A stretch of 63,827 bases of DNA, filler included, from Folioceros fuciformis (Eukaryota), in the NCBI GenBank assembly GCA_049999805.1. It is 10 parts of 10 records of this genome, joined end to end, with 100 filler letters (N's around TTAATTAATTAA, not from the genome) between each part and the next. Parts side by side here need not be neighbours in the genome. Positions count along the whole stretch, not along the records: positions 1 to 6,526 come from JBNGIO010003225.1; positions 6,627 to 14,999 come from JBNGIO010003227.1; positions 15,100 to 25,685 come from JBNGIO010003228.1; positions 25,786 to 29,012 come from JBNGIO010003229.1; positions 29,113 to 38,990 come from JBNGIO010003230.1; positions 39,091 to 48,182 come from JBNGIO010003231.1; 4 more parts are not named here. The stretch is one strand, 5' to 3'. The position numbers were made by a program, and so were the translations under genes. Shown piece by piece: positions 3,001 to 42,631 of the stretch (its first letter is position 1; each line of letters opens with the position of its first letter). Below the pieces are notes generated by a model that was not told the origin of the DNA, made no database searches, and saw only the letters and a program-made list of their open reading frames with translations.

Positions 3001-5574
3001 CAAACCACGTCCAGGTGATATAGCTCCGAATTGGGAACACCATGGCCAATGCAATGCTCACTTGAGGTACGTCGAAAAACTTCACATGTGGTGCCATATA
3101 AGCGGAACTCCAGATTGTGGTGAATTGCCAGGAGCCTAACTGACATGAGGTTCTTGGCCATGCCAGGGATATACAGAATGCTTGGCACATGCAGCACTGA
3201 ATTGTTAGTCACGACAAAGCGATAAGTACCATATCCTTTGATGGGTAAGCTTGTTGATCGCTGCTCATCTCCAAGCAAAACAGTCTGAGTGGAATGTGTG
3301 AGTTCTTTGAAACTGCTGAACAACTGTTTGTCTTTGCAGATGTGCGCTGTCGCGCCATAATCTAAGTACCAATTGCTAGGATCACTCGATGAAGATGACA
3401 AGCAGATGGTAAGGATCTTCACCACTGCCTTGTTGTTCTCATGTTGAGATCTTTCCTTGCAATTGAATTGACTTCAGGCTTGGGACGAAGGGGCTCGCCA
3501 GCTTTCTTTTTGCAACAGTCCCCCTCTCAATGACCTGGGATGTTGCACCAATTACAGTTGCCAAGTTTCTTTGTAGAAGAGGTACCTTTAGTGGAGGGTT
3601 GTGGGCGAAAAGGTGGTCAACCTCCTCCTCTGCCTCTCCCTCTCCCATAACCTCCACGTTGACGTGAGGTGTAGAGAACTCTGTCGGTACGCATCTTACT
3701 AGAGCCACTCGAGTTGTTTCAAAGTCAGCTTTGCTCCTCTTGATGAAGGGCAGCAATTACATTCTCTAGGGAATAATGGCCAGGTTGAACAGGTGCGATG
3801 TTCTGACCAGCAGTGGCCAGTGGACCATTTTGCAGTGATACAAAGGTCTAATATGATGTAGGAAGTGTGAGCAGGAGATAGGCCACAGCATCCTCATCAA
3901 CCATAGTAGAGTTCAGTTGAGCAAGGCGGGATTGAAGTTTGGTGAAACTTGCTGGTGTGGGCAGCCACACTTTCACCCTCTTGCATTTTCCAGGTATAGA
4001 ACTCTTGTGTTACTGTGCACTTGGTAAGCATCGTCTTGACAGCATATGTATTCGTGAGCTGACTCCAAATTTGGTGTGCCTCTGTAAGATAAGAACGTCG
4101 GGAATCAACACTTCGTCAAGGCCTGTAATCAAGAAGGCAACAACAACGTTGTTCATTGTGTTCCATTTGTCTACATCAGCTTGTGTAACTGTGGTTCCAG
4201 TTCCAGCGGCAACAATTGTCCCAGCAGCTAGAAGCAAGAGCTCTACGTATGTGCCGTCGATGACTGTCCACACGCCTCTTGCACGCAAGGTAGTTTGCAT
4301 TCGAACTCTCCAAACTTCGAACTTAGTGCCATTGAATCTTTCTTGGCCTTTCAGATCTGTTGTGAATGTAGGAGTGGTTGAGGTCATGCTGACTATAGAA
4401 TTTGGCTGCATAGGAGGGATTGGTGGAGATACCGAAAGCATAGGGGATGGATTAGGTGGTGGACTAGGAGGGGGAGTCCCAAGCTCACGTCAACGACGAA
4501 TGTAGGGAGACAAGGGAAAACTCAACAGATGGTCTCTTGAAGACATACAACAGGAAATCCACCACCAGACAGGTAAGAACAGTTAAGTCTGAAAAACCAT
4601 TTTAGGGTTTGGTGAACCTCTCAGCAGAAAAAGCCTAACTTAAACTACTAACTTCTTTTCTAGGGCATGATTGGCTTCAGCGGAAACGGTTAATAACCGC
4701 CTGTAAAGCACTAGCGGAAGCAAGGGGGCAAGAAGGCCATGAATTTCACAAGACATCTAAAAACAAAGATGCCTACACTATAAAAGGTTACAATGTTAGT
4801 TCAATCTGATTGCTCCTCGTTAGAGGAGTGAAGGGTCAAGTTCAAAATATGCAATTGTCTAGAAAGTTGACTAATTTCAACTGAAAACTTAGAAATTATT
4901 TTCTGAATTTTAAAATCTGTAGAATCCAGCCGCTTAGAGAATGTCTCTTGTCTTTGGACAATAGCATTCAGAGTACCTTCTAGAATTTGTACCTCTGATT
5001 CAAAATTCAAAGAATCACTTGCAGATGTACTGGTTGTCTCGGTAAGTGGTTGTGGTGCTGAGATTGGCCGTTTCAAAATTGGATTCGCTGAGCAGGGATT
5101 CTTCTTAAACAAGCGCCCATAATTGCAGCACGGAAGAATAGTGCCAATTATAGTTGATCGTCGATGCTGATTATTACGGCCTTGGGTGCGCCAGTAATTA
5201 TTAAGAATTAAGAGATCACGCTCAGCTTTAGTTTCTGCTCCAGTCCACGGGATGCTGGTTGAAATGCTCGAAGTGTGGATTGAGGAAAACAGGTCTAGAT
5301 AAAGACATTTAGCAATGAACGAGAACGATCTGAGAGCTGAGCAAACGCACGCGTGAGAGCACATAGAAAGAAGTGATAGTTAAAGGTTCAATAAAAGTAC
5401 ATGAACCAAGTGTGTAGAGAAGTAACCGCCTATGACCTAACTGAAAACATTATAAAATTATTATAAACTTGCTTAACCTAATGAAGTGCTAATAGGTTTT
5501 TGGCTACCTAGCCCTAGAAGCAATTAAATATTAATAAACCCCGAGTAGGTATGACCTAAAACGGGTTTCCAATA
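1..5574 (-). mobile_element. Ty1/copia LTR retrotransposon A, decayed (gag-PR-IN-RT-RNaseH)
   Basis: Fragments run in copia order on the minus strand: gag from ATG 4546 (ERFNGTKFEVWRVRM), zinc knuckle near 3520-3560, protease WYLDYGATAH, GAG-pre-integrase LWHARLGH, integrase YTPQQNGVAER, RT KARLCAQG / LYGLKQS / IYVDD, RNase H FHARTKHFEIKHHYIR (stop at 18). Many stops and frameshifts. LTR boundaries are uncertain and no canonical PBS was found. Confidence 0.95.
4801..5364 (-). CDS. Accessory ORF (187 aa) upstream of gag in copia A; C-terminal coiled coil
   Basis: Uninterrupted ATG-initiated ORF ending 255 bp before the gag ATG. Clear heptad pattern in VQILEGTLNAIVQRQETFSKRLDSTDFKIQKIISKFSVEISQLSRQLHIL. 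Confidence 0.5.
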   Translation of the reverse strand: MCSHACVCSALRSFSFIAKCLYLDLFSSIHTSSISTSIPWTGAETKAERDLLILNNYWRTQGRNNQHRRSTIIGTILPCCNYGRLFKKNPCSANPILKRPISAPQPLTETTSTSASDSLNFESEVQILEGTLNAIVQRQETFSKRLDSTDFKIQKIISKFSVEISQLSRQLHILNLTLHSSNEEQSD

Positions 5575-5584
5575 CGCCCCCTCA
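5575..5584 (-). other. Polypurine tract-like motif followed by an LTR-like start
   Basis: Minus strand reads TGAGGGGGCG-TATTGGAAA. The PPT/LTR junctions at 32559-32575 and 58007-58022 read TGAGGGGGAG-TGTT. Confidence 0.6.
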
Positions 5585-6526
5585 GACCTACTCTTATAAA
5601 AACGGGTGTACACAAGAAACAGGCTTGAGGCTAGGTTGAAAGGTAGCGCGCCATCTCCAAATTTCAGAATCCCACTGTCCCAGGCACTCAACGATCACAG
5701 ATGCATACGCCCTGATGGCAGCTCACCTGCTAGAGTTCATTGTAGCAGTAATGCTAGCTGTATGGATTCTGCTCCCGCCTCAGCCCGTGCTAGTTTCCCT
5801 GATTAGATTCGCATGATGATTCATCCAGGGCTGATTCTGATCCTGTTGCATATTGCTTGCAGTTGGAGCGCCCGAGGTGATCATGTGCGTTACACACAGG
5901 AGCTGTGCGATAAGAGGGTGCTCTAATGCTGCTGGAGACTGATGCTTCAGGGAACTGAAGTCTTCGAAGAAGTTTTACTGGTTGCCCCCTCAAGAGAAGT
6001 GTTCTGTAGGCCGAGGGAGCCTCGATGCTGATCATGTGTTGTCTTGGGAAGCCCTTTGGTCAAGACATCAGCTACATTCGATGTTGTGTGCATATATTTT
6101 AGCAGTATGGCGCCCATAGCTATGGCTTGTCTAATAAAATGAAACTGTATCTCTATGTGTTTAGACCTAGCGTGTAGAATAGGATTAGCTGTGAGTGCGA
6201 TGGCTGATTGATTATCGCACTGAAGGACTGTTGGGTTTGGCTGTGACCAGTGGATGCCCTCAAGGAATTGTCTAACCCATAAAATCTCACGTGCAGCTAG
6301 GGATAAGGCCCCATATTCAGCTTCGGTTGATGAGAGGCTTACAGTAGTGAGCTTTTTAGATTGCCAGCTTATGGCTGACCCACACAGAATGAGACAATAG
6401 GCTGCTATGGATTTTCTAGAGTCAACGTCCCCTGCCCAATCTGCATCAGAGTATGAGGTAAGGGTGGTGCTGTTGGCTGATGAATACTTAAGGCTAAAAT
6501 GCTGAGTGCCCTTAAGGTATCGGAGA

Positions 6527-6626
6527 NNNNNNNNNNNNNNNNNNNNNNNNNNNNNNNNNNNNNNNNNNNNTTAATTAATTAANNNNNNNNNNNNNNNNNN
6601 NNNNNNNNNNNNNNNNNNNNNNNNNN
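6527..6626. other. Artificial contig linker (N44-TTAATTAATTAA-N44)
   Basis: Identical 100-nt linkers also at 15000-15099, 25686-25785, 29013-29112, 38991-39090, 48183-48282, 52903-53002, 56197-56296 and 62501-62600. The core puts stops in all six frames. Confidence 0.99.
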
Positions 6627-8653
6627 AGTCCCTGTTCTACACTGTGCTGAAATTGTGTACAGCCAAGAGGGATTTGGTTGTGGGGCGACGGGTCCATGAT
6701 CTCATTGTCAAACTTGGATACGAGTCGAGTGCTTACTTGGGGAACCATATCTTGCGTATGTATGCTGCTGGAGGTAGGCTGGAGGAGGCCATGGATGTGT
6801 TCACCAGGGTGCGCAAACCAGATGCTTTCATGTGGTTTTCCATCTTATCCGCATATGCTAAGCAAGGGAAACCCAATGAAGCTATACAACTGTTTCATGA
6901 GATTCGTAGGTCAGGAGTTAAGGCTGATGCTCACGTCTTCGTAGCTGCCCTTCAGGCGTGTGCATTTGCTGGGGACTTGGAATCTGGCAGAAAAGTGCAC
7001 CACGAGGTGGTGCAGAGTGGCATTCCTATTAACTTGTTTGTTGGCAGCGGCCTGGTGGACATGTACGCGAAATGTGGCCAACTGAAAGATGCACGCCAGG
7101 TTTTTGACAGCATGACCACAAAGGATGTGGTGACATGGACAGCGCTGATCGCTGGGTATGTACAGCTAGGACTCGGCCAGGAGGCGCTTCTTGTGTATGG
7201 ACGAATGGAGCGGGAGAGCCTCATTTTGCCTGACCGTGTTACTTTTGCTTGCCTTCTGAATGCGTGTGCAAGTACTGGTGCCTTACAAAAGGGCAGGCAG
7301 CTGCACTCACAGATTGTGAAAAGAGGACTGCTGGATGACGTAGTGTTAGGCAACTGCCTGGTCGATATGTATGCAAAATGTGGCGAACTGAACGATGCAC
7401 GTCAGGTTTTTGACAGCATGGCCAGAAAGGATGTGGTCACATGGAATGCCCTGATTGCAGGGTATGCGCAGCAAGAGCTCGGACATGAGGCGCTTCTTGC
7501 CTACGGACTAATGGAGCAGGAGGGCCTGAATTTAGCTAACGATGTTACTTTTGCCTGCCTTTTGAAGGCGTGTGCAAGCGCTGGTGCCTTACAGAAGGGC
7601 AGGCAGCTGCACTCACAGATTGTCGAGAGAGGATTATTGAATAACGTAGTGTTGGGCAACTGCCTGGTGGACATGTACGCAAAATGTAGCGAACTGAAAG
7701 ATGCACGCCAGGTTTTTGACAGCATGCCCAGAAAGGATGTTGTGACATGGAATGCCCTGATCACTGGGTATGGTGCTTGTGATGAAGGTCAGAAGGCACT
7801 AACTTGTTTCGAGGAGATGATAGTTGCAGGTTTTCAGCCTAATAATGCTACTCTTTCTTGCCTCTTAGTGGCATGCAGTCACGAGGGACTGGTCCAGGAG
7901 GGTCGCAACCACCTTGATTCCATGGCTGAACAATATGGCATCGAACCTACGATGGAGCACTACACATGCATGATCGATATTCTTGGGCGTGCGGGCCATT
8001 TAGATGAGGCAGAGAACTTGTGGCTATCACGCAAGGGCCAGACTGATATCGTGGCATTGAAAACTTTGTTGAATGCCTGCAAAAGTCACGGGGATATAGA
8101 GAGGGGAGAGCGGTGTTTTGAAAGCATCGTCAGGATGGACCCCCAGGATGGGCCAGCGTATGTGCTCATGGCCAATGCCTATGCAGATGCAGGTAGGTGG
8201 ACCGATGTAGATAGAATTGAAACACAGAGAAAGGTAGCAGGAGCTCACAAGAAACCAGCAGTGGCAACCATTGAGGTGAAAAAGGAAGTTCATAGATTTG
8301 TGGTGGGAGACAGACACGATAATATTGCACTTCAGGTAGACCGGACGAATGCACGTCTGAAACAGGAAGGAGGCCACGTACCCCACACGAAGTTGGTGTT
8401 GAAGCCAATTTCTGAGAAGGACAAGGAAGATGTGCTTTGTGGGCACGCTGAGAAGCTAGCTCTGGCGTTTGGTCTCTTGAACACTCCGAGTGGGACGCCT
8501 CTGATGGTAACCAAGAACCTACGCATGTGCAGTGACTGCCACAGTTCCACCGAGATCATGTCAAGGCTTGAGCAGAGAGACATTGTTGTGAGAGATGGGT
8601 ACCGTGTGCATCGATTCGCAGGTGGTCGTTGCAGTTGCAAGGGTCGACCCTGA
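6627..8653 (+). CDS. PLS-class PPR protein with E1/E2 and DYW:KP (GRP-type) deaminase-like domain; 5' truncated by gap
   Basis: P-L-S triplets (LVDMYAKCG..DARQVFDSM..KDVVTWNALI), P2-L2-S2, E motifs, KKPAVATIEV in place of the PG box, zinc ligands HAEKLA and CSDCH, C-terminus CSCKGRP*. No intron in the visible part. Confidence 0.96.
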
Positions 8654-8980
8654 GAAAAATGAACCAGGTACATGGCCAGTGCCCAAGTGTGTACACCAGG
8701 GAATACCGCCCTTCGGAGGTGAAGTGCTTCGTCAACTGGATCCCACTCCACCTTGAAACACGGACACATCACTAAATCTAACCCACATTCCAACACGGAT
8801 GGAACAAGACTCGGATGAATCACTTACGACATTTTTAAAACAGATTAGCTCAGGGTTAGGGCTTTAGGTCGTTGCTCATTAGATGTAAACCCCATGGGGC
8901 TTGCCATCATTCGAAGTTCTTAGGTCCTATGCGATGATGCTCCTAGTGATGCACCCTTCGAAGAGATAGTCTCTCGGTAT

Positions 8981-9255
8981 ATCATAGACCTTTTGAAAAG
9001 ATGAGTCCCCAACTCTCACTTGGTATCATCATAGACCTTTTGAAAAGATGATTCCCCAACTCTCACTTGGTATCATCATAGACCTTTTGAAAAGATGAGT
9101 CCCCAACTCTCACTTGGTATATCATAGACTTTTCGAAAAGATGAGTCGCCACCTCTCACTCGATATCATAGTAGACCTTTCGAAAAAATGAATCCCCAAC
9201 TCTCACTCGGTATCATCATAGACCTTTCAAAAAGATAAGTCCCCAACTCTCACTC
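8981..9255. repeat. Tandem repeat, about 47-bp unit x6
   Basis: Unit ATCATAGACCTTTTGAAAAGATGAGTCCCCAACTCTCACTTGGTATC; copies diverge toward the right. Confidence 0.95.
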
Positions 9256-9284
9256 ATTCCTTCAATTGAACTCGAAACCACCAT

Positions 9285-10819: not shown

Positions 10820-11200
10820 GTGCTTGGATTGTCCTTAGATGGACTGCCACAAGGAAGGATGTTCTTGATGGACTTGGATTTGTACTTAGATAGATGAGGT
10901 GCCTAATAGTAAAGGAAAGGATATTCTTGGTTGGCTTGGGTTGGTACTTAGATGTGTGCTTTCAAGGAAGGATGCCCTTGCTTGGTGGATTTGGTTGGGG
11001 GCTCCCTAAGGGTGGTTGGCTTGGATTGGTACCTAGATGGGGTGCTTAAAGGCAAAGATGTCGTAGATTGACTGGGATTGGTACTTATATGGGGTGCCTG
11101 GAAGGAAGGATGCCTTGGTTGGCTTGGATTGGCACTTACATAGATGTGTCAAGGAAAAGATGTCTTTCCTTGGCTTCGATTGGTACATACTTAGATGGGG
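10820..11200. repeat. Degenerate tandem repeat, about 50-bp units
   Basis: Repeated AAGGAAGGATG...TTGGCTTGGATTGGTACTTAGATG motifs. Confidence 0.7.
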
Positions 11201-14200
11201 CGGTAGGAGCTTGAGGGTAAGCATGATGAGGATAGTCCCAATTGGTCTGAGACCTGCTAGCCGGTTTTTCCCATTCCCTAGATGTAGACTGTGTCGAGAT
11301 ACGACTCCCCCTAGCTTCACACGTATGAAGCCTCCATGCCCACATCGAAGGGGACACCAGACTCTTGACGGAAGATGATTGGGGACGACCACCTTCCTCG
11401 TCGTGAGACTGAGGCCGCTCCGTCCTAGTGCGCTCCCACAGTCTGGCCTGACATATTTCTCGCGAGCTACCTTATGTAGGTTTGTGTTTGACTCGGGTCC
11501 GTGCTTGGCGTTGGAGTTTGGATGGATACCGAATGTACGTACATATGTCTAATCCATCTGCATCTTCGGTGCCGGCACTTCAGAGATCTGTCTGGATATG
11601 GCTCGTGGGGGAACAATTGTGGCCTTGGCATTTGGAACTTTGGGCGATGTCATTCCGGTTGCGGTGAGAGGCTACTACTGAATTCTTCCTTCTCCATGTT
11701 GTGTTCTGGTTTCCACGGAGGACCAGACATTGTGCGCTTCCTCAAACTATGGTCGGCAGCACTCTTGCCTGGCACCTGTGCGCAGCATCAAGCAATGTCG
11801 TGTTTCTGATGGGCTTCCTCATTCGATCGGGAGGCTTTCAGCTGAGATGTTTCGATTGTGCAAGAAGTCCGCCTTGATGGGTTTGTTGGGTGCCCCAAAG
11901 ACGCCCACGATCGTCATATGTTGACGACGAGGAGGTTGTTGGAATGTTTGTAACTTCTTTGCTATATATGTTGCAGGTTCTTGTGGCATCGCTGGCTAAA
12001 GCTAGGCAGGAAGGCTCCGTCTTCTTCATCACCCATGCAGCCCATGAGAAGGTACGTGTCTGTGGATGCAGTGAAGTGAAGGGAGAGTGGGAAATATGGC
12101 TGAGTTGTTTTTCCACGATGGGATTTTCAGTTTTTGTGCAGGCCACTGGCGGCTGCTGGAGTGGCCTTCAGAAAGGTTTCGACTCAGCCAGTGGTCTCTG
12201 CGTCTAAAGTGCATGAAGGTGCGTATGGTAGTGATCTAGCTTCAGATGCTTCGGGGAATCTTTTGAGGGCTTTAAGTAAGTTTGCTGCTGCAATGCATGT
12301 GCTATTCACGCATCAGCTGAGGAAGACTCGGGAGGAGGCTGGAGGGCTTCTGTTGATTTCGAGCATTGGAAAGAGTGTTTGGAAGCGGTGGATGTTATTG
12401 TTGAATTGGGAGGCGCTGCGTTGCAGCTGATTCTCTTCAACTTCTTTGCTCTGGTCTTGCTCTCTCATGACTTCAGGATGTAGTTTCCTGTTGGAGGCTC
12501 CGCACACACAGGCTGATACAGTTGTTCAAATGGTGGCTATCCTGGCAGGAGGGCTGGCATCTCGCTGAGTTCTATGGTGTTCCATGTGCAATTGCGGCAC
12601 CATATGTTGTACCTTACAGGTACCTTTTCCGCATGTCAGGTCATATGGTGCAGAGTCAATTTGTATTGCATTTCTTCTGACTGTTTCTTAGTTCGAGGCA
12701 TCAGCGTATCGGTTTCACTGCGTAACGCTGGCATGCAGTGCTCCTGCTGCATTTGAGAGGAAATTTCGTTACTCACATCCGCATCTTTATCGGCGTCTAA
12801 AACAAGGCGGCCATGGGGAGGTAATGTGGTTATGTCTTCTGCGTTCCCCAACCATAGGTTGAGCTCATCCTCGTGAAACTCAAGCATGGAAGAACAGGAT
12901 CTCAAATGTTACTTTTGTGGAATGTGTAGGTTGGATGGCCTGAGGTACTTCACTGGATGTGGCCACTGTTTAGTGAGCGGTGGGTGACTTGGCGGACAGA
13001 ATCTCTTCGGATGAGCCCCTATCCTCTGACGGTGATCTTCTTAGGCCAAACGCTTCTGCAAATTACATGGACGCCGATCTCTTCGTCACCTAGAATGTTT
13101 TCATCTTTTCCATTACTGCAGGACCCTGTCACTGCCCTTCCAATCTCTCGAGGTTGGCCTGAAGCACCTCCACTACTGTGAGCTTGAAGATACCGTTAAC
13201 AAAAGGCTGATGGCTTGCCTTGTATTTTTGAGAATTCTGCAAGTGATCTCGTGTTGGTCACATGGTGTTGAATTGGATGCTTGTTGAACAGGTACGGCTT
13301 CAGTGACGCAGTGGTGGAGTGTCCTGGTATGTATGCGCACTTCTGCAGAGTCGGCTGTTCTGGTTAGAGACCTTGGTGGCAGACAACTGAAAGCTCTGTA
13401 CAAACTGTGGATGAAAGGGTACTGGCCAAGGAGTGTGCACGTTTGCGGTTTCTGGTTAGCCCCCATCGAGTGGTGGACTCACAGCACCTCTGAAATTGTG
13501 GAGGGGCCTCATGAACCTGCAGCTCCGCCCGTGCATCCCGACTTGCTTGCCACCGAGTTCACTCCTCCCGTCAAGTTGCTTCGATTCCTGGAAGATATCA
13601 GGGATCACGAAGGAAACAAATGTCGGCCTATATTCTTCGGGATGAGCTGCATCGGCAGGTGATGGTCTCTCCCCTTGCTGCAGCAAACTTCTACTCGCCT
13701 TCCACAGGTCCTGGGATGTCCAGGTAATCAGTGAGTTCATCATTTGACTGCAGTTTGGGGCTACTGGAGAATCCCGAGTCCATGCTTCGTGTTCTCAGGC
13801 AGGTTATAGTGGCATCTGGCCAGCATATGATTCTCTTCACCTCTGCTCATGAACCTCTCGACTCCATCATCATGGCTACTGCAAAATCTCTGGCAGACAC
13901 GGAGGGATCATGCAAATCTACTCCCTTCGAAGCTAGCAACGTGAATGATGGCATTTTTCTGTTCGGAGGTCGACTTCTGTGCTACTCAGGGTACTATTTT
14001 CCACACCTGTCTACATCTAGGAATGAGCAACTGAGCATCGTTCTTCTGTGCTGGTGGATGGATGGGTGGGTTCCTGACATGCCACATCATGCAGATTCGT
14101 GCCTTACACCTGGCTGTTCCCGAGGTGCCTCCTGGCCTTCCACCACGGTGGCAGGTAGTGCATGATCATCACCTCTCCCCTGGCCTTCACACATCCACTC

Positions 14201-15099: not shown

Positions 15100-15235
15100 T
15101 GGGAAGACGAGTCCCGATGAAGCAGAGCTGTGGGAAGACGAGTCCCGATGAAGCAGAGCTGTGGGAAGACGAGTCCCGATGAAGCAGAGCTGTGGGAAGA
15201 CGAGTCCCGATGAAGCAGAGCTGTGGGAAGACGAG
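15100..15235. repeat. Exact 31-bp tandem repeat, about 4.4 copies, at contig edge
   Basis: Unit TGTGGGAAGACGAGTCCCGATGAAGCAGAGC with no spacers. Confidence 0.95.
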
Positions 15236-15612
15236 CACATATGATTCTCTATTGCCTAGAGCTGATCTAGCCAAAAATGTGTATTTAATATGTCCTGGGG
15301 ATATGGAAAATGCAGAAGCCCTAGAGGAGTATACATGCCAACAAACCGGCATTCATATGGTGTGGCTAGGCTGTAAGCCAAAACACAAAACACATCTATT
15401 GTGAGTGCCCTAAGTGCCACAATTAAACTGTATTTAATTAGTGCAAAATCTAATTATTATAAATTACTAAAACCTAATTACTTATGTGTACTAGGTTCAT
15501 TTGGAAACTAGGTTCATTTTGGAAACTCAGCGAGGAAGCTAGAGAATACAATGAGGACTGTGTAGGGATAGAGGAAGAACTTAATGCATTGGACAAAATA
15601 CTTGACCTTTAG
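15236..15612 (+). CDS. Putative spliced antisense ORF in the 3' region of copia B (5' end lost in repeat/gap)
   Basis: Exon to 15400, then GTGAGT donor at 15401, AT-rich 94-nt intron, TAG acceptor at 15494. The joined frame stays open (…KTHLLFIWKLGSFWKLSEEAREYNEDCVGIEEELNALDKILDL*). AATAAA at 15644-15649. Confidence 0.4.
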
Positions 15613-16005
15613 GAAATCTTAGGTAAATATTTTTTAAATGCCCAATAAAGTTTTTCTTCTTAATCAACCAAGGTTAGGGTGATTTAACATACACTATGCC
15701 TAAACTTCTCATGTGTTTGTTTTGTAAATCTTGTCCTAAAGACTTAGTTAGGATATCAGCTGGGTTCTCATGGGTTTGGACATAACTTATGTTTATTGTC
15801 TTATTTTCTAGCATTTCTCGAATGTAGTGATATTCTACAGCTATATGCTTGGTCCGAGAGTGAAAAACAGGGTTTCTAGCTAAGGATATGGCTCCTTGGC
15901 TATCACTAAATAGAGGAGTGGGATCATTCTGAGGATGACCAAGCTCACTTAAAGCTAACCTGCTCCAGACAATATCCTTGGAAACTAAGGTTAGGACTCT
16001 ATAGT

Positions 16006-16138
16006 CGGACTCAGTACTTGAGAGGGCAATGGTTGGTTGTTTCTTACTTGACCATGATATGGGTGCTCCTCCGGACTCAGTACTTGAGAGGGCAATGGTT
16101 GGTTGTTTCTTACTTGACCATGATATGGGTGCTCCTCC
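16006..16138. repeat. Exact 66-bp in-frame tandem duplication in RNase H
   Basis: GGAPISWSSKKQPTIALSSTES is encoded twice; copies start at 16006 and 16072. Confidence 0.95.
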
Positions 16139-19100
16139 CAGTAGTAATATATAACCGGATACGGACTTGCAGGTATCAGGATCGCTAGCATAATCAGCAT
16201 CAGCAAATGCTGCTAGAATTAACTTCAGGATGCTGGGTCGATGCTTAAACATTAATCCAGTGTGCATAGTGCCTTTGAGATATCTGAATATTCGTTTGAC
16301 ATATACCCAATGTTCTGTTCCAGGGTTTTCCAGAAACTAGGAACATGCACTAACTTCGAAGGAGATATCAGGTCTTGTGAAATTGCTTAAATAAGTTAAG
16401 GTACCCACAACATGTCTGTAAGGGACTGCTAACATCTCTTGTTTTTCTGCATCTGTTTAAGGGCTCATAGCTTTAGTGAGCCGAATGCCACTTGCAAATA
16501 ATGTAGCTGGCTTAGCATCTTCAAGTCCAAACTTGGCTAAACTTTCTCTTATATACTTAGTTTGTACAAAGCTTAAAGTTTTGTTGCCTCTATCCCTTAT
16601 AATATTAACTCCAAGGGCATAAGTAATCTCTCCTAAATCGGTCATTTCAAAAGAACTTCTTAACCATACCTTGGTTTCAGCTAAGAGAGAGAGTGAGGAT
16701 GATGCCATAAACAAGTCATCAACATAAAGCAGGAGATATAGAATATCACTTCCTGATTTCAATATGTACATGCTAGCATCTGCCTTGCTTTGTCTGAAGC
16801 CTCGGTTAACTAGCTTGACTTGTATAACGACGTTCCATTCTTTGCCTGATTGCTTCAGGCCATAAAGGCACTTAATGAGTTTGCATACCCAATCTTCCTT
16901 TCCCTTGACCTCATAGCCCTTAGGCTGTTTCATATAAATTTCTTCTTCCAGACGCCCATGTAGGTATGCTATTTTGACGTCCATCATATGGAGGTGTAGG
17001 TCATATTGTGCAGTTAAGGCTAAGATCATTCTTAGGGAGGCAAACTTGGAAACTGGTGCATAGGTGGCCCAGGGTATGTAATCTAAACCAGGTATCTGGG
17101 TAAACCCTCTTACCACTAAGCGTGCCTTATATCTTTCTATGGAACCATCACCCTTTCTTTTTATTTTGAATACCCACTTGCTAGTCACTATCTTTCTTCC
17201 CTTAGGTGGTTTCACTAATTCCCATGTAGAATTCTTCACTAATGAGTCGTACTTAGAATCTACAGCTACTTTCCACAAGTCTTTCTCAGGAGAGGAAAAT
17301 GCTTGTTTTAAGGTTTGTGGCTCTTCGGGATCAACTGTCGCTTTGTATACAGCTTGATGATAAGGTGAAAAGGGAGAAACTAGATCATCTAGGGTAGCAA
17401 GGTATCCAAGGGGTGGTTCCTTCCATCCTGCAGGTCCTGGAATGTTAGGTCTAGTTCTCAGGTTGTACCTCAAAGCAGGTTGTTGTTGTAGAATATTTTC
17501 TTCAATGTCGACTTCTTCATGAGCTGGCTCTTCTGTTGGTGAGTTAGGCTTATCTTTAGGCTTGTCTTTGAGCTCGTCCTCATGCACAATTCATTCAATC
17601 TCGGGGATAATAAAGTTGTCCTTGAGATGATAGTCATCCTCCAAGTGGAGAGGTTCTTGTCCGTCGGGATCTGGTGTAGTAGGTCGACATGGAATATGTT
17701 CTAACAGCTCCTCCTCCTCCTGCAGAGTAGGTTCAACAAAAGGAACGCTCGTAGCAGGGAGCGGATGAAGGGTGACAAATCCATCATCATCAAAAGATGA
17801 GGACTCCGTGTGCACCCCGAAGGAAACATCGAGAGTGGCAGGAGCTCCCACTGAAGGGGAAAGTAAAGGGGACTCATGAAAAGTCATGCTCCTTGCATAT
17901 ATAATTTTCCTAGTGAAAGGGTGGAATAACTTGTATCCTTTGATGCCTTCCGTATAGCCAATGAAAGTGTACTTGACTGCCTTAGGGTCTAACTTCTTGC
18001 GTTGTACTTTGGGTATAAAAACATACGCAGGTGACCCAAAAATCCGAAGATGTTCAATGGAGGGCTTTCTATCAGTGAGAGCTTCATAAGGTGTTATACT
18101 TGGGACTGCGGAGGTGGGCAGTCGATTAATAAGATACGTTGCTGTCATAATGGCCTCGGCCCAATAACTCTTGGATAGTTGGGCTTGAGTAAGCAAGCAA
18201 CTAGTGATCTCTTGTAGGCGTAAATTCTTATTCTCTGCGACGCCATTTTGTTGAGGAGTGTGTACCACAGTGAGTTGCTGAGCTATACCTTCAACTCGGC
18301 AAAAATCAGCAAAATTATTGGATGTGAACTCGCCACCATTGTCGGAACACAATGTTTTGAGTTTCTTATCCGTAAGTCTCTGTGCCCACATCATGTAATC
18401 CTTGAAAAATTGAAAGGCCTGGCTTTTGTGTTTCAGGATATAGGTGAGGACAAAACAAGAGTAATCATTGATGAAGGTTAAAAAATATCTGCAACCACTA
18501 AAGGAAGGGCAGAAATGGGACCACAAATGTCTGTATGAACCAACTCAAGACATGCCTTGGCCCGCTGTGGAGATGGGTTATGAAAAGGAGCTTGGTACCA
18601 TTTTGTGACAACACAAGCTTCACACCAAGACAGAGGTTCTATCTTGGAGAGGGAGGGTGATCTATAAAAATTTCCCTTAGACATTTGGATCAGCTTTTGG
18701 CTATTATGATGACCTAAACGGCAGTGCCAAAGCATAGTATGGGAGGAGGTGGTAGAATTTTGGGAAGCTACATTGATGAGATGTGAGGGACCCACTTGGA
18801 CTGAGAGTTTATATAGTCCATCTTCTAGTGTACTTGAGCAGATGGTGTGCGGCTTACTTGATAGATAAGAAAGAAGACAAATATCTGCTTGGAGGATAAT
18901 TTGCATGCTATGTTCTGAACACAAACTAGCAGTTGACACTAGGTTTTTACACATGGATAGTACATGGAGGACATGAGAGAGAGAGAGAACTTGGCCTGAA
19001 GAGAATCTGAGAACAATTGAACCTACACCAGAGATTGTGAGGTTATGATCATCGCCCACTAGGATAGTTTGATGTCCTGTAGCTGGCAAGTAAGACTCAA

Positions 19101-20392
19101 AAGAGTTTATGTTGTGACAGATATGAGATGTAGCACCACCGTCTAAATACCAATATTGGTTGGAGGGCTTGGATGATGCCAAGCATATAGTGAGTGCTGA
19201 TGGTGTTGCTGAGCTCTTTTTCTTCACAGCAACATTTGCTCCAGGGGTAGCCTCCTTCTTAGGCTCACCGTTCTTCTTCTTGTAGCAGTCCTTCTCCATA
19301 TGATTCGGTATTTAGCACCAATTACAAATAACTCCCACCTTCTTCTTACCTCTTGCAGGTTTGGAAAAAGTGCGTTCTCCATCGGGAGAATTAGGATTTG
19401 GCCTAAGAGGAAAGGGTCTACCGCGGCCTCGGCCACGCCCTCTTCCTCTGCCTCGTCCTGTAAACATCACCTGCTATCTGGTAGATCGCGGATTCTCTTG
19501 TCGACGACTGGCATCCTCCTGTATAATGGCTCCAATTAATTCATCAACGCGAATATCCAGCGTGTTGGAGCCAATTGCGTTCTTTTCTTTCTGTGCGGCT
19601 CTAAGGACAGCACTTTGTGTTGTCACAAAGGACCTATAGGAGGGTGGTTAGGAGGCAAGGAGACCAATAAAGGCTGCTTTCTCGGTAAGTTTCTCGTCAG
19701 TTGATGCTTCGAAATTATTCTTGGCAACACGGAAAGCAGTGATATGATGATCAATGGAATCATTCGCCTTCATTTTCAGGTCGTGGAGATGACAGGTAGC
19801 AGTCAATAAGCTCATCCCGTCTTTAGAGGCATATAATTGAGCTAGACGCTCCCACGTATTATGAGATGTGCCGGCTCCTGAAACTTGGCGTACCGTGAAT
19901 TCGGTAAGACCTTGAAGAAGGATATCTCGAGCCCTTTAGTCCTTAGCGTCCCATTCTTCATGTTTATCTTCATCCCAAAGGTGTCTGGTCTCGGTTCCTC
20001 TGACAATATGCCATAGGCCATGACTACGTAACACTCCTTGCACTCGATCTTGCCATACATCATACCCTCTTCCATTGAATCTATCTTTCTCCTTGAAGTT
20101 GTGTGCTTGAATCAAAGTGGTGGGCTTTGATTCAGAATTAGTCAGCTTCTTCTTCTCCTTCTCTTTGAACTTTTCAAGTTCATCTTGCCATTTGGCCCGC
20201 TCTTCTTTGAGCCATACAGCCTTCTGGGCTTCAATATATCATGCCTTCTCTTCGGCAATTTCTTTATCGTCGGAGAAGTCTACCCGGTCAGACATTGCAT
20301 GTGTGTTTATTGATGCAGATTACGCCATCCTTGACGCGACGACTTCTCGCTTGTATTAGCGGCAAAAAAGCGTGAGCAGTTATAGCATTTCT

Positions 20393-20932
20393 TCAAAGGG
20401 GAATTATCTGCATCGTCATCAAAATCTGCAGATGGGTTACAAAACCCTTACAAGCAAGTGAGTTGGATCTATTGGCTCTTGGGAGGACTAGTTCTTGAAG
20501 ACCGCTGGTGATTGAATGTAATTGATCAATGAGATAATTCAATCTATCATTAGTAGCAGTATGAAGAATTCTCGCTTCTGCTCTGATGGAGTCAAGAGAC
20601 TGCTGCAAATGATCTGGATTTGGATTGAAGACCTTTGGCCTATGCTTAATATACTTAAAAATAGATGACTCAATGGCGCTAGACTGCAAAAGGTCAAAAG
20701 AGGTTAGGAGATCTTTGTGAGCGTAATTTATGTTACCTACTCTATCTCCAGACTTAGAAACAAGGGCTTCTATGAGACGACACACTTGTGTTTCAACAAC
20801 ATCAATTTCAGGAGCGTTGAGATCAAAGTTTTCCTCCTGAATTGCAAATAATCTGGGTTGTTGTTGTCTCTTCTTCTTTGAAGCCTTGATCTTCCTCCTA
20901 TACTCTTGTTTGCTGGGATTGAAACAATCCAT
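20393..20932 (-). CDS. Accessory ORF (179 aa from ATG) between PBS and gag in copia B
   Basis: Open frame MDCFNPSK..., basic stretch RRKIKASKKKRQQQPR, heptads LQQSLDSIRAEARILHTATNDRLNYLIDQLHSITSGLQEL. Ends about 100 bp before the gag ATG. Confidence 0.55.
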   Translation of the reverse strand: MDCFNPSKQEYRRKIKASKKKRQQQPRLFAIQEENFDLNAPEIDVVETQVCRLIEALVSKSGDRVGNINYAHKDLLTSFDLLQSSAIESSIFKYIKHRPKVFNPNPDHLQQSLDSIRAEARILHTATNDRLNYLIDQLHSITSGLQELVLPRANRSNSLACKGFVTHLQILMTMQIIPL

Positions 20933-21138
20933 GGAGGGCAAACAAGGGGTGAATGCACAAAAAGTGCATCCTTAAAGTATTGTGCTCCACTCAAGTTGGT
21001 TGCTATTCAAAGCGAGGTCTCTATGCTCCATGATCTTCGCTGGAAAAGCTAAAAGTGCAAATGCATGGAGGAGAGAAGAGTCATGAACAAAAGCAAGCAA
21101 GAGTGCTCAAGCACAAGGATCAGTGGGCTTTGATACCA

Positions 21139-21393
21139 TGATGAAAATCACACACACTAAGCTCTTAAGAAAGAGATTCTTATATATATTAATACAAAAT
21201 ACAAAGCCTATTTATAGGCAAGGTGGTTAGGTGGTTACAACCATAAGTAGTTGTAACCATCAAGTAGTTATAACTACCCTAACCACTAACTACCTAGAGC
21301 AACTAACTAGTAACTACTTAATGCCCTAGGTAGATAATAATGCTTAAGTTAGGTACCCTAGTGAATAGTGCCCTAACCCTAATCTATTTTACA
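21139..21393 (-). repeat. 5' LTR of copia B
   Basis: Abuts the PBS. Plus-strand ends are TGATGAAAAT and ATTTTACA, with an internal TATA-rich region. The right boundary is inferred. Confidence 0.7.
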
Positions 21394-24300: not shown

Positions 24301-25685
24301 TTGATGGCATGTACAGCACATCCTGTAGGGTCAGAATTGATCCATCATGAAGACTGAACTTGCAAATACCTTGTCCTTGTATTTGCAAACTGGTCTTGTT
24401 TTGTTCGTCACCAAGAAGCACTTTTGATCTGGACTGACGTGAATCGAGAGTGAAGAATTGTTTTCTGTCCTTGCATATGTGTGAGGTTGCACCGGAATCA
24501 AGGTACCAGCTCCCCTCCTTTTGCACAGAATGGGCAAGACATATAGTGAGGATCTTCACCGGTGGTTTGGTGTCACATGATTGTCTGTCTTTAATGGTGA
24601 CATTCGCAGCGCTCTTAGTAGCACGTTGAGGTTCACCAGATTTCTTCTTCTTACACCCTCGGGCACAATGACCAGCAATTCTACACCAGTTACAATTCCC
24701 TGGTCTCTTGGAGGATGACGAACCACTGTCAGGTTTGCCACTTGCTAGAGGTCGTGTTGCCTTGGACTTGTTTTTGTTAGGTCGAAAGCCTGTAGCTAAC
24801 ACCTTTTCTGCTTTGTTCCTAGGTACACTAGCAGAATTCAAACAGGACTGCTCTCTTGGTACAAAGCACCAATCACATCTTCACATGTGATTGTGCTTGC
24901 AGAACCTCCAGTAGCTCCACTAGGTTTGACAGGTCCATTCTATGTTGTGACGAAAGCTTGATAAGATGGGGGCAAGCTAGAAAGTAACCTTGCCACAGCT
25001 TGTGACTCAAGTATCTTTTCGCCAGTCAGCGAGGTAATCTATGCTCGTAGTTGACGAAATTGGCTTGTATGTGCCGAGATCTTGTCTCCCTCCCTCATCT
25101 TCAATGTGTACAGCTCTGTCTGTATGGCACAAAGACTCATCATATTTTGAATTTTGTATGTCCTCTTCAGCTGATCCCATATGTCAACAGCATCTGTAAG
25201 ATGTTCAACATCTGGCACATGGTCCACGTCCAGGCCATTGATTAGGAGAGCAACAGCAATGCTGTTGTGCAGGTCCCACTTGGCAATGTTGTAAGCTATC
25301 GGCTTGTTTGCTCCAGTGGCAGCAGGGTTTGGTTTTCCGTAAGTTCTGTCCACAATGTTTCCAGACACCTTGCGCCAGCAGGATGGCCTTGATGCAAACA
25401 TGCCAAATAGGATATCGGTTCCCATTGAAACAGTCTTTCTCCTTTAGCTCAGAGGTAAAGGTTGGACCAGACATTTTTATGAGTTTGGGATTCGGCTTTG
25501 GCTTGGGTCTTATGTTAAACTGACCAAACTGCTGAGCTAGTGCATCGATTTGTGTAGTGGACATGTAGATCTAACAGAACACCTAAAAGCTACGGCTTCA
25601 AGGTGATTCTGGTATACCTAAACGTCCTGCAACATTCATGTTAGCTCATGCATCATGTTTTGATATCAAACTGACCAAGAGTGCA
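21394..25685 (-). mobile_element. Ty1/copia retrotransposon C, decayed, with internal RT-RNaseH deletion
   Basis: gag ATG 25564 (KDCFNGNRYPIW), CNWCRIAGHCARGC knuckle, WYLDSGATSH, PYTPQQNGLAER, KARLVARG. RT jumps from DEDLYI directly into late RNase H near 22330; pol stop at 22014. Confidence 0.95.
21421..21802 (+). pseudogene. Putative antisense ORF in the 3' region of copia C (one frameshift in an A6 run)
   Basis: MSTASEMSSLQAESATKAKGKGPA...RLRWRK. Removing one A at 21642-21647 continues it as ITEEAAMPPPTRDDLGEEMSLVGQLQAVGALLNQIKESSEVAAECKVIKFT. An intron-like GTAAGG...CTGAC...TGTAG lies at 21799-21890. Confidence 0.4.
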
Positions 25686-35575: not shown

Positions 35576-35577
35576 CC

Positions 35578-38400: not shown

Positions 38401-39090
38401 TATTCCGCATCACAACATTTTGGGAGCAGTAGGTAGTTTTTGAGAAAGATGTTCAAAGGGGCTAGTGCCCCTTTTTAGCCTTTGGCTCCCTGCTCAAGTT
38501 GTTCCTCGTATCTTTGGAGTATATGGGACTTTCAATCTTTTTCATAAATGATATTCCAAGTGCAACTTCTTAAGATTTGCACTTTGTGATACGATATCTT
38601 GGGCTATATGTATTTTCTCCAAGAGCTAAAACCACTTGCTAGTAGAGAGCAACAAGCTCTATGAAATGGAATACTTAAATTATATTTTTATGTAATAAAT
38701 TGAATAAAATAAAGGAAGGATCATAAGTACATATTCCATAAGATTAAGGACTATACGATGAACGTTGGTTTGACGAGGACTATACGATGAACGTTGGTTT
38801 GACGAAAATTTATAAATATACAAAAAAATGATAAATGAGAAACAGGTTGTGAGATGAACATTCACACATATTTAGGACGTCAATGCACTACATATATATA
38901 ATCTTGATAGTTGTAAGAATATATTGATCTCAAGGCATATTCTAGAAAAAAATGATTGAAAAGAAGGCTAGTGAGGAGTCATGCCACAAANNNNNNNNNN
39001 NNNNNNNNNNNNNNNNNNNNNNNNNNNNNNNNNNTTAATTAATTAANNNNNNNNNNNNNNNNNNNNNNNNNNNNNNNNNNNNNNNNNNNN

Positions 39091-39655
39091 GTGAAGTATC
39101 ACTTCATTCGAGAGGTGTTGGAAGACAAGAGGGTACAGCTTGTCAAAGTTCACACCAGTCAGAACCCTGCAGATGTTCTTACCAAGGGGCTCTCTACGGA
39201 GCAATTCACACAAGCTCGGACACTCATGGGCATGAGCTAGACCACTCTCTTATGAAGGTAAATTGGCCTTTAAGTGGGAGGTTGTAGGGTTATTAAAGCC
39301 CAATGTGCTTAGGCTAATGTGTTTAGTCTAAGATTAGTGTCTTGTTAATGTGCTTAGACTAATGTGTTTAGTCTAAGATTAGTGTCTAGTTAATGTGCTT
39401 AGACTAATGTGTTTAGTCTAAGATTAGTGTCTAGCTAATGTATCATTAGTTTAGATTAGCTTAAGCTAATTTGTAGGAAGCTTCTTGCGTAGCTTCCTGT
39501 GAGCTTCTTGTGAAGCTTCCTAGGGAGCTCTTCTAGAGGGTATAAATACCCCCTTGAGCTCCCTTGCCAACCACTCTCAATGTGACCTCTTTTTCTCCTC
39601 TCCTCTCTGCCTCCTCTTCTCCTCTCCTCCCCCATGCTCCTCTAGTGTTCCTACA
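39091..39655 (+). mobile_element. 3' end of copia G: RNase H tail, PPT and 3' LTR (39283-39655)
   Basis: VKYHFIRE...NPADVLTKGL; PPT AAGTGGGAGG; LTR TGTAGG...CCTACA containing a 45-bp unit x3 and TATAAATA. Confidence 0.9.
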
Positions 39656-42631
39656 CTGACTAACATATAGCAAATGTTTAGCCATGTTAGGAACATACAG
39701 TACATTGTCTAGACAGAGGAGACGACCATCTGGTTTCAGAAAACAACAAGAGCCCTGCCCCAATATCTTAAGGCCTAACTGGGTGAGTTCATCACCAAGT
39801 AGTACCTTCTCATATGTATGTAAGGGAACAAAGTTACTGAGCAAACTCCTGTTGTGGCAGATATGAGTTGTTGCTCCCGAATCTAGGTACCAAGCATCAT
39901 GCTTGGAGGATGTTGAGAGGTAGGTTGTCACCATCACAATTGGCTGCTTGCCTGATGGAGGTTTGTCCTTGGAGACCATATGTGCCTCAGCCCCTTTATG
40001 GGCCTTCTCAGCCTCCTTAGGCTTTCTAGATTTCTTTTTACGACATTCCCTCTCCCAATGGCCGGGGATACTACACTAGTTACAAGAGCCAACTCTTTTG
40101 GTTTGCCTTGGTTTCGTGTCCTTGGAGGGGCCAGCAGATGTATTCTTGTTCTTGTTGGGAAATCACGGTTTAGAGGTAAATAGAACTTTATCCATTTTAG
40201 TGCGCCCATGGTTGAAATGTGAACTATTGCATGACTGTTCCTCTTGGAATAAAGCTCCTACTACATCAGTGAAGCTAATCTGGACTGGTTGTCTTGTAGT
40301 TGCAGCTTTTCTTGCATCACGTAATGATGCTCCATAACTGGAAACGAAAGGCTGGTAGCTTGGAGGTAGGCTAGTCAAAAGCTGAGCTACTACATCTAGT
40401 TCTATCATGGGAGAACCTAGAGAGGCAAGTTGGGAACGCAGATGTCTAAACTTGGCTATGAAGACAACAACTTTCTCACTATCTTTCATACAAAAGGTAA
40501 ACAACTTGCCCCTAAAATCTACAAGTGTTAGAATGTTTTTGACATCGTAGGTTTGTGAAAGTTGGTTCTAGATGTCTTCAGCTTTGGAGAGGAAGGCAAC
40601 ATCTGGTACAAGGACCTCATCAAGGTCACTGATGATCAAAGCTCGTGCCACATTGTTAGCATTATCCCACCTATCCTTGTCCACTTGAGGAGCAGTGATG
40701 GCATGTTGTTGAAATTAGCTACTCACAACGCTCCATACGTGTCTGGCATTAAGGGTTGCATGCATGCGGACGCTCCACACGGGGTACTTGTTCCCATTGA
40801 ACCTATCACGTTCTTTGAACTCCACAGTAGAAGAAGGCTGATAGGTTGGAGGGTATGGAGTACTGTATCCTCCTCCAAGAAGTGGAGGCAAGGGTTGCTG
40901 AGGGCCTGCAATTGCAGTGGGTAGAGGAGGCTAGGCTTGTCCATAAAGTCCCGTGCCGAATGCAGGGAAGGGATTCACATAGCTAGCTCCTCCCCTTGAC
41001 AGTGGATTCACGGGTCCTGCTCCTAGTGTAGGCAGAGGATTCCCGAAGCCAACTCCAAAGCTCGGCAGTGGGTTGTAAAAGCCTGCTCCTAATGTGGCAG
41101 GAAGGTATGATAGCACAGTTCCAGTTCCTTGCGCAGATGTGACGAAGGTATATGACTTTATGTTTGTGGCAGGCGTAGATGTAACGGCTTGTGTGGTTGA
41201 TGCTGATGTTGGCTTGGATATCTCAGATGGTGGAGGGGCAATTGGAGCGATGGCTGTTGGCGCAGAGCCACTTGAAGAGGATGGCGCAGAAGCGCCCACA
41301 CTAGTGGCACCTAGCAAAGCGCCAGCAATTGCCTGCCCTAGTTCTAGGGTGGTCTCTAGGTTTCCGGCCATGGTGGATGCACAAATTGGTAGTGTAGAAA
41401 GGTAAGACTATTGGTTTCTCAAGAGTCTTGTATCCCTGCAGAAAAGTTACATCTTCTCATGGGAATGGGCGCAGATCTGAAGAGGCGCCTGCAAAGGGGT
41501 GCGAGTCTGCAATCCTTGTGCAAGGTAAGCATCTTCCAAATTCGTGTGCCACTTCGTGATAGTGAACGTGACCCTTCACATCTCCTTCTTGCTGCGCGCA
41601 GATGCGTTAAGCTGGGAGATGGTGAAATCGCATACCAACATCAGAAAATGATGTTGCAACAGCTGTCCTTTGGGGATTCTTCTTCTTCAAAAAACAAGAA
41701 AGCCCTTCAGGTGTACTGCTAGGGTATTGATTTGTGCCTTGATTTCTTGGATGTCCAGAAGGATTTGTGTTGTCAAAGCCTGATTTCTGGTAGTGTGACG
41801 GGATAGCATAGCCTGCACGTCTTGGTGATCAATTGGCGGGGTTACAAATGGAATCACACTCAACAGATGACGGTGAGAGGCAGCCTGGGCATCACCGTGT
41901 TCTTGAACTTGATGGATGCAGCCCTTCTTCCAATTGTTGTTACTAGGCCTGATGAAGTCTGGCCTGTTTGGGTGTAGGGTATACTTGGCTCTGGCCGGTC
42001 TCTTTCTAACTGTTTGTTGGCGCGAGTCTAGATGCAAACGTGGGGGAAAAGTATCAATAGAGGAACTTCTAGAGACCAGGCCACACTGCCTGAGGCGATC
42101 CCTTTCTTTGATGAACCTCTCTATGATAAAGTTGTTATAGCTCCTACTTCTTGGTTGCCTGTTCCTGCGAGGCACTTTGTAATTCTGTGCGCCCTGTCTA
42201 CATGCTACCCAACAATAGTGCAACAGAAGTCTTTTCCTTACAACCTGCTTTTTATTTGTGATCTATAGCTAATATGGTCATGTAGGTGGTGAAGGACTGT
42301 CGGTCACATGAACTAGGGGCCATGGGAAATGGTTACTGGGTTTTGTGCCCAATCAGCCCTTGCACTACATGCATCTACCACATCAGATTTTGAAACACAA
42401 AGCAAATTGGATTAGGATCAGATATCAAAGCCTGGGGCTCTGATACCATGTCAATTTGCTTAGAATTGCTGGGATAGTAGACTAAGAAACATGGAAATAA
42501 AACATAATAATTATTGCGGTCAAAGAGAATATCTTATATACATATGTTTTGTTCTCTAAGTGACCTTTCGGTAACCGTAGCTATTTAACCCTAAGGAGTG
42601 GTTATATAAATAGCCCTAAGTTATTCCAACA
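39656..42631 (-). mobile_element. 5' half of copia H (LTR, PBS, accessory ORF, gag, protease), interrupted by element G
   Basis: LTR about 42449-42631. Canonical tRNA-iMet PBS TGGTATCAGAGC at 42448-42437. gag from 41371 (ERDRFNGNKYPVW), WYLDSGATTH. Reading stops at NMAKHLLYVSQ, exactly at the end of the G LTR. Confidence 0.93.
41687..42223 (-). CDS. Accessory open frame (178 codons) between PBS and gag in copia H
   Basis: Arg-rich N-terminal half and C-terminal heptads ILLDIQEIKAQINTLAVHL. No 5' ATG (track start is TTG), so it may be decayed. Confidence 0.4.
   Translation of the reverse strand: MHYCWVACRQGAQNYKVPRRNRQPRSRSYNNFIIERFIKERDRLRQCGLVSRSSSIDTFPPRLHLDSRQQTVRKRPARAKYTLHPNRPDFIRPSNNNWKKGCIHQVQEHGDAQAASHRHLLSVIPFVTPPIDHQDVQAMLSRHTTRNQALTTQILLDIQEIKAQINTLAVHLKGFLVF

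Follow-up and report, generated by a model that had tools for sequence, protein, structure and literature searches.

We analysed a stretch of 63,827 nucleotides (the window) from the land plant Folioceros fuciformis (GCA_049999805.1), composed of ten contigs joined by blocks of N, and find that three Ty1/copia retrotransposons within it, here called A, B and H, each contain a separate open reading frame (ORF) on the sense strand of the leader, upstream of gag. These frames exist, recur in position and size, are discrete from gag and share a heptad architecture. Most likely, they belong to an accessory ORF of several divergent Ty1/copia families with short long terminal repeats (LTRs) in this genome, and we favour, with moderate confidence, the reading that all three are a fast-evolving 5' sense accessory ORF of the eORF-5'F/5'aORF class, whose product would be a small protein containing a zipper-like helix. 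The window holds at least nine copia-type elements or fragments (tblastn map); the leader is visible only in A, B and H, and the ORF is present in all three. With lengths counted from stop to stop, the leader ORFs are:

4801-5379, minus strand: leader ORF A, 192 codons, stop codon at 4801-4803; the first ATG, at 5364, gives 187 codons
20393-20971, minus strand: leader ORF B, 192 codons; the first ATG, at 20932, gives 179 codons
41687-42262, minus strand: leader ORF H, 191 codons; its sole methionine is residue 152

An ORF scan reproduced both the coordinates and the range of 178-187 codons given in the original prediction, which had also placed one such ORF on each of three contigs; this is borne out by the contig limits, with A on 1-6526, B on 15100-25685 and H on 39091-48182. 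None of the three frames is interrupted by an internal stop, whereas the other five frames contain 8-18 stops in A, 8-21 in B and 4-16 in H, and the frame was kept open in 0 of 2000 shuffles for each ORF. The stop codons of ORF B (20393-20401) and ORF H (41681-41689), both on the minus strand, lie in the same 9-nucleotide context (the stop and three bases on each side), from which that of A differs; the shared context may be a coincidence in a low-complexity string. Tblastn and blastn searches of the window for other copies of the ORFs or leaders found only the three themselves, and when the three leaders were compared as DNA the only meaningful common block was the primer-binding site (PBS) of B and H, the rest being blocks of 8-15 nucleotides with E values of at least 0.087.

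The host elements are assigned to Ty1/copia on their gag and RVT_2 matches and their domain order. Pfam recognizes copia-type gag in all of them (DUF4219 in A, B and H, Retrotran_gag_2 in B and H), and the pol of element B matches RVT_2, rve and SH3_retrovirus. The domains run gag, protease, integrase, reverse transcriptase (RT), RNase H, with integrase before RT, in both A (from 4357 to 42) and B (from 20238 to 15677; tblastn map). Element H is visible only through protease: between there and the contig start at 39091, other sequence takes the place of its remaining pol. A repeat search found no LTR pair on the three contigs, which end before the 3' LTRs. The features of the hosts are:

21141-21400, minus strand: 5' LTR of element B, ~260 bp, upper boundary approximate
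21127-21138, minus strand: PBS of element B, complementary to the 3' end of the initiator methionine tRNA (tRNA-iMet) with one mismatch
15674-20295, minus strand: gag-pol of element B (gag, protease, integrase, RT and RNase H), decayed: its 1562 codons contain 9 in-frame stops, and the frame shifts once near 18500
42449-42630, minus strand: 5' LTR of element H, ~180 bp, upper boundary set by eye
42437-42448, minus strand: PBS of element H, an exact 12-nucleotide match to the tRNA-iMet complement
39533-41371, minus strand: gag and protease of element H, ATG at 41371, decayed, with 5 in-frame stops in 612 codons
4010-4489, minus strand: N-terminal piece of gag of element A, with the DUF4219 motif; first ATG of the frame at 4441
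5372-5574, minus strand: LTR-like block of ~200 bp directly upstream of ORF A, either the 3' LTR of the neighbouring element A' or the 5' LTR of A
5947-6526, minus strand: RNase H end of the pol of A', a different copia (tblastn map, RNase H comparison)

The order PBS, ORF, gag is the same in B and H, and the tRNA-iMet PBSs upstream of both ORFs agree with the earlier placement of these two ORFs between PBS and gag. The distance from the ORF stop to the gag ATG is 97 nucleotides in B, 315 in H and, to the first ATG of the gag frame, 359 in A; the interval first proposed was about 100-315 bp. By hand count, the leader frame of H contains seven stops in the ~62 codons between the PBS and the ORF and four in the ~93 codons between the ORF and gag. 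Because stops flank ORF H and none lie within it, it is a discrete unit inside an otherwise non-coding leader. In A and B the leader frame differs from that of gag (by coordinate arithmetic), and in H the two are the same. All three ORFs thus have the position that defines the eORF-5'F/5'aORF class, being sense, upstream of gag and, with stops in the spacers, outside the polyprotein frame, with the 5' boundary ambiguous in A. There, a purine tract and the 3' end of A' come before the LTR-like block that adjoins the ORF, and the RNase H sequences of A' and A are just 32-44% identical. We found no tRNA-iMet PBS in element A, and looking by eye for the PBSs of other tRNAs gave nothing convincing. 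The 5' boundary of element A is ambiguous and so, in consequence, is the true N-terminus of its ORF. The LTR boundary of element B is backed by depth in run X3, which falls from 2872 in the bin 21202-21428 to 0 in the bin 21429-21655.

In the window, A, B and H are all dead copies, and their leader frames therefore record the ancestral, active state only. At the observed rates of gag-pol decay, a leader frame would stay open from an intact ancestor under neutral decay with P = 0.32 in B and P = 0.07-0.21 in H, so an open leader frame in a dead copy is not anomalous. The first gag stop of element B is a sense codon in the other copies aligned from reads. Family B, its leader included, is represented in Logan contigs of the source species by one paralogous contig of 438 nucleotides, with 36 differences and 3 gap letters, and is also present, again with its leader, in Logan contigs of a second species (run X3); runs X1-X3 all contain the family. 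In this second species, a contig of depth 319 joins 20097 to 21102, so that the leader ORF is missing entirely, as is the beginning of gag; this contig may come from a family B copy with a deletion or from a mis-join, its shorter side being just 44 letters. Run X21, which is possibly RNA, yielded two contigs, both less than 90% alike and both outside the leader, and is uninformative on expression. The RNase H of element B carries an exact 66-bp tandem duplication (16006-16137, minus strand), which is in frame and duplicates 22 residues. On the same contig, the third of the window, element B is nested in or abuts a decayed copia, B' (21430-25685, minus strand), in which an internal deletion around 22260-22330 joins RT directly to the RNase H end. 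The leader of B' is not visible, as the contig ends ~120 nucleotides upstream of its gag.

The feature that unites the three products is a heptad pattern near the C-terminus. We scored heptads with an ad hoc measure, distinct from COILS, MARCOIL or any other published predictor, which takes the best proline-free window of 28 residues with hydrophobic residues at a and d and polar residues elsewhere, and ranked all 112 stop-to-stop ORFs of at least 100 codons in the window, coding and non-coding alike. The leader ORFs take ranks 1, 2 and 3 of the 112 (0.80, 0.68 and 0.60; the next ORF scores 0.57). Across 24 settings, which differed in window length (21-42 residues), in the sets of residues and in the minimum ORF length (giving 112 or 325 ORFs), all three were always in the top 11 and held the top three places in 8. 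Shuffles of each ORF's own sequence reached its score in 1 of 1000 cases for A, 47 of 1000 for B and 14 of 1000 for H. The best 21-residue windows (A 157-177, B 141-161, H 167-190) all lie within the last quarter of the protein. A, B and H each contain three or more heptads in succession in which a and d are hydrophobic and proline is absent, and these sequences may form a coiled coil or leucine zipper. The stretches in question, located by the heptad score, and the basic clusters that accompany them are:

4825-5007, minus strand: heptad stretches of ORF A, residues 125-153 and 157-185
20489-20551, minus strand: three heptads of ORF B with Leu/Ile at a and d, residues 141-161
41693-41764, minus strand: heptad-patterned C-terminal helix predicted in ORF H, residues 167-190
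20840-20899, minus strand: Lys/Arg cluster of ORF B, residues 25-44, resembling a nuclear localization signal (NLS); first of 112 in basic-cluster rank
41963-42253, minus strand: Arg/Lys-rich region of ORF H, residues 4-100; net charge of the whole ORF +22

A layout of a basic segment followed by a C-terminal heptad repeat had been proposed for all three. The heptad half of this claim is seen in each of them, and the basic half in B and H, which rank first and fifth of the 112 ORFs in basic clusters; it is weak in A, which ranks 27th. Structure prediction had been suggested as a check and was run on A and B: AlphaFold2 in single-sequence mode predicts helices in ORF A at residues 126-150 and 156-189, with a block-mean pLDDT (predicted local distance difference test) of 49-65 over residues 121-190, and confidence is low throughout. 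The ESM Atlas gave no usable match for B and for A a single match (0.76) to a coiled-coil family, which is below any useful level. We rejected a bZIP assignment, as the basic and heptad parts lie apart (residues 25-44 and 141-161 in B, 4-100 and 167-190 in H) and no bZIP match was found in Pfam.

The C-terminal halves carry coding-like periodicity. Compared to a stop-free Markov null, the period-3 signal of the C-terminal half gave P = 0.038 for A, P = 0.050 for B and P = 0.016 for H, and over the whole ORF the values were P = 0.27, P = 0.011 and P = 0.032, respectively. We also scored codon usage relative to copia coding sequence, for which known coding pieces gave 0.050 +/- 0.043 and wrong frames -0.067 +/- 0.036; ORF B, at 0.041, is within the coding range. 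The most economical reading is that the constrained part of the protein is the C-terminal zipper-like helix and that the N-terminal part is a loosely constrained basic or disordered region.

The three ORFs show no detectable relationship to one another, as anticipated in the original prediction. Pairwise BLASTP gave E values of at least 0.27, and for each pair of ORFs 166-463 of 500 shuffles scored as high as the real Smith-Waterman alignment. A shared (E/D)RFNG..VW motif in the three gags had been taken to suggest one lineage. The motif is indeed present in all three; however, it is the generic Pfam domain DUF4219, it also occurs in the fourth copia B', and the pol of B is no closer to that of A than to those of other copias, so that a single lineage is not supported. 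B and A are 42-48% identical in RT and 46% in integrase, and B and four other copias of the window are 37-46% identical in RT and 37-50% in integrase. The N-terminal gag pieces of A and H resemble each other somewhat more closely (39%). Since the pol identities are in the range of the other copias of the window, the leader ORF is a feature that spans several divergent families.

A number of observations weigh against a conserved accessory protein. The heptad hypothesis came from these same three sequences and was assessed with an ad hoc score. Common descent of the leader ORFs is unproven, because they are mutually unalignable. No Pfam family passed for any of them, neither B (at near and shorter lengths) nor H (at near lengths) had a match in an index of 5.8 billion proteins, and an exhaustive phmmer search of ORF A against 1.84 billion representatives returned 0 matches; these blanks show only that there is no annotated or widespread relative, the coverage of plant retrotransposon leaders in the libraries being uncontrolled. 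Searches of viral contigs with the three ORFs or the gag alignment, and of metagenome contigs with ORF B or the gag alignment, likewise gave nothing. The N-terminal halves have no period-3 signal (P = 0.48 for A, P = 0.22 for B and P = 0.42 for H), and the codon-usage score is intermediate in ORF A (-0.004) and nearer the wrong-frame range in ORF H (-0.031). Mean pLDDT in the single-sequence models is low (44.9 for A and 41.7 for B), and ESM recognition values of 1347 and 1391 are below the 2300 reached by 91 of 100 proteins of known families. Among the 40 variants listed, seven are fixed differences between ORF B and its second-species copies, of which two are synonymous and five non-synonymous, with no sign of constraint; this sample is tiny, tool-selected and too small for a selection test, and for gag the differences in the same list are five synonymous and eight non-synonymous. 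Initiation is also problematic in each ORF. ORF H is without a usable ATG, a caveat already attached to the original prediction, the ATG of ORF A is only 8 nucleotides from the boundary of the LTR-like block, and several upstream ATGs precede that of ORF B, including an in-frame ATG in good context at 21031, 20 codons upstream of the ORF, with one stop between.

Much of this could be accounted for if the frames were functionless relics or by-products, either of a once-coding stretch, such as an old N-terminal region of gag or an earlier capture, or of a frame kept open for an RNA or translation reason, such as ribosome transit. The orphan and mutually unalignable sequences, the N-terminal halves devoid of periodicity, the codon usage of H and A, the five non-synonymous changes among the seven listed in ORF B, the missing start codon of H and the low fold and language-model confidence are all points in its favour, and Neumann et al. 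themselves doubt the function of heterogeneous eORFs (PMC6317226). We regard this as a serious but unlikely alternative. Relics would not be expected to share the same position, near-identical lengths (192, 192 and 191 codons) and C-terminal heptads in families that are ~40-48% identical in pol, and the period-3 signal above the stop-free null in all three C-terminal halves indicates constraint at the level of amino acids.

The leader frame might instead be a first exon or N-terminal extension of Gag, joined to it by splicing of the spacer or by recoding, in which case no separate protein would exist. In H the leader ORF and gag do share a frame, the gag regions that precede DUF4219 vary greatly in length and composition, suggesting that additions are tolerated, and splicing occurs in some copia elements. 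We nevertheless consider this quite improbable: the frames differ in A and B, a crude scan (donors matching at least 6 of 8 consensus positions) found 0 in-frame donor/acceptor pairs in the three elements, and each gag has its own ATG, which in H is in strong context. Unrelated host or foreign sequences, captured independently by the leader of each of the three families, would explain why the ORFs have no similarity to one another, and gene transduction by LTR retrotransposons is documented (PMC7264820). This is very hard to credit, as the searches turned up neither a host-like nor any other homologue of the three ORFs, and the same size, the same place and a heptad-helix end arising three times would be an improbable outcome. 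Chance open frames picked out by a reader in search of ORFs are effectively refuted by the 0 of 2000 shuffles that stay open for each ORF, the presence of the ORF in 3 of 3 visible leaders and the top three heptad ranks of 112, even though the finding was made post hoc and the window has a few further ORFs of 170-190 codons that lack an explanation, at 11033-11548 (minus strand) and 49439-49999 (plus strand).

If the three frames are indeed a 5' accessory ORF, the genomic RNA of the active progenitors would have carried, in order, the PBS, a leader of ~150-200 nucleotides, a cistron of ~180-190 codons, a non-coding spacer of 100-360 nucleotides and gag-pol. The product would be small, fast-evolving and largely disordered, ending in an amphipathic leucine-zipper-like helix of 3-8 heptads, and in B and H it would also contain Lys/Arg clusters that resemble NLSs or nucleic-acid-binding segments. 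We hypothesize that such a protein could self-associate through the C-terminal zipper and that its basic part might bind nucleic acid or provide nuclear entry, with the element's own RNA, cDNA or particle as its possible target by analogy. LINE-1 ORF1p and the virion-associated protein of caulimoviruses are small proteins that combine coiled-coil oligomerization with a basic nucleic-acid-binding part, and are a functional analogy only: no RRM or other Pfam domain was found in the leader ORFs and the order of the segments differs. Membership of a LINE-1 ORF1p-like group was considered and rejected.

Several ATGs precede both the leader ORF and gag, and if these are ancestral, ordinary scanning cannot reach gag. 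Gag would be translated off the same RNA by a non-canonical route, or off another transcript. A bolder form of the accessory-ORF reading, which we think tentative and rather doubtful, is that an entire group of Ty1/copia families with short LTRs in this plant lineage has become obligately bicistronic. Their 5' gene would then be older than the split of families now 40-48% identical in pol and as integral to the elements as gag, its architecture (a basic or NLS part, a disordered linker and a C-terminal zipper) having been kept while its sequence turned over completely. The 5' protein could in that case be, for example, an RNA-packaging or chaperone factor or a counter-silencing factor, and its presence would force gag-pol to rely on shunting, reinitiation, an internal ribosome entry site or a transcript of its own, a translation strategy that is not described for copia.

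Extra ORFs upstream or downstream of gag-pol in plant LTR retrotransposons are heterogeneous and have no known function (Vicient and Casacuberta 2020, PMC7264820; Neumann et al. 2019, PMC6317226), and their position is conserved while their sequence is highly heterogeneous (PMC6317226). Neumann et al. defined the eORF-5'F category and, in 582 Ty1/copia elements, recorded eORFs 250 codons long or longer, with all four positions represented (PMC6317226). The statement in the original prediction that canonical copia elements have no 5' ORF needs to be softened in this light, while its account of the SIRE 3' ORF agrees with the survey, whose main text names only this ORF as typical of a copia lineage (PMC6317226). 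Like the leader ORFs of A, B and H, the eORF-5'F is a separate sense ORF between the 5' LTR and the polyprotein, with heterogeneous products mostly without known domains; the leader ORFs, with 178-192 codons, are below the survey's 250-codon cut-off (PMC6317226), which is not a biological criterion, and would have escaped it.

The nearest parallels in structure are the 5'aORFs of Tekay chromoviruses (Ty3/gypsy), namely ORF0 of rice Retrosat-2 and those of RIRE3/RIRE8 and sunflower Tekay 13-2 (PMC11728184, PMC3485330). These are also sense and ahead of gag, with an NLS-like motif, few alpha-helices, long disorder and no similarity across species, and they are kept within the family, in 500 of 523 sunflower copies (PMC11728184). 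In contrast to the ORFs described here, they belong to gypsy rather than copia elements and are about twice as long (~400 residues), and no C-terminal heptad repeat is reported for them in the main texts. ORF1 of Ogre and Athila (Ty3/gypsy, OTA clade) is similarly upstream of gag, but often contains the plant mobile domain PF10536 or Athila ORF-1 PF03078, neither of which Pfam finds in the leader ORFs, and its hosts are giant gypsy elements with long LTRs, in contrast to copia elements with LTRs of about 180-290 bp (PMC6317226). The env-like ORF of SIRE (eORF-3'F) shares with the leader ORFs a copia host and a heterogeneous sequence, but is 3' of pol, encodes 380-790 residues and often has a predicted transmembrane segment (PMC6317226, PMC4093653). 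Identity with it was rejected, as the leader ORFs are 5' of gag and not between pol and the 3' LTR. Full-text searches of this literature, main texts only, found no copia lineage described with a 5' ORF that ends in a heptad helix.

The window has further features outside the leader ORFs. A pentatricopeptide repeat protein with an E motif and a DYW deaminase (6629-8650, plus strand), a plant organelle RNA-editing factor, is encoded by an uninterrupted frame of 674 residues at the start of the second contig. Two intron-free genes encode a leucine-rich repeat (LRR) receptor-like kinase of 902 residues (44162-46867, plus strand) and a WD40 propeller protein of 436 residues (54310-55617, minus strand); the GC content at third codon positions is 0.68-0.69 in these two host ORFs and 0.35-0.48 in the copia ORFs. 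An open frame of 543 codons (51271-52899, minus strand) resembles STAND/AAA NTPase domains only weakly (E = 1e-4 to 8e-4). Tandem repeats of 31 bp (15100-15254), 45 bp (39302-39441) and 40 bp (48049-48182) are present, the 31-bp array within the 3' untranslated part of element B. Two of the three arrays are directly at contig ends, and the assembly probably breaks there because of them. Rfam gave no match across the whole window.

For transposon biology the gain is incremental and no new category is opened. Extra ORFs are common in plant LTR retrotransposons, none has a proven function, and they are best documented in Ty3/gypsy and, for copia, only at the 3' end, in SIRE. A cut-off of 250 codons hides smaller accessory ORFs from surveys. 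A 5' ORF that recurs across divergent copia families is a tractable case for what such proteins do, and tests whether ORFs of this kind generally evolve by keeping their architecture while their sequence is not conserved. It also opens the question of how gag is translated behind a long upstream cistron.

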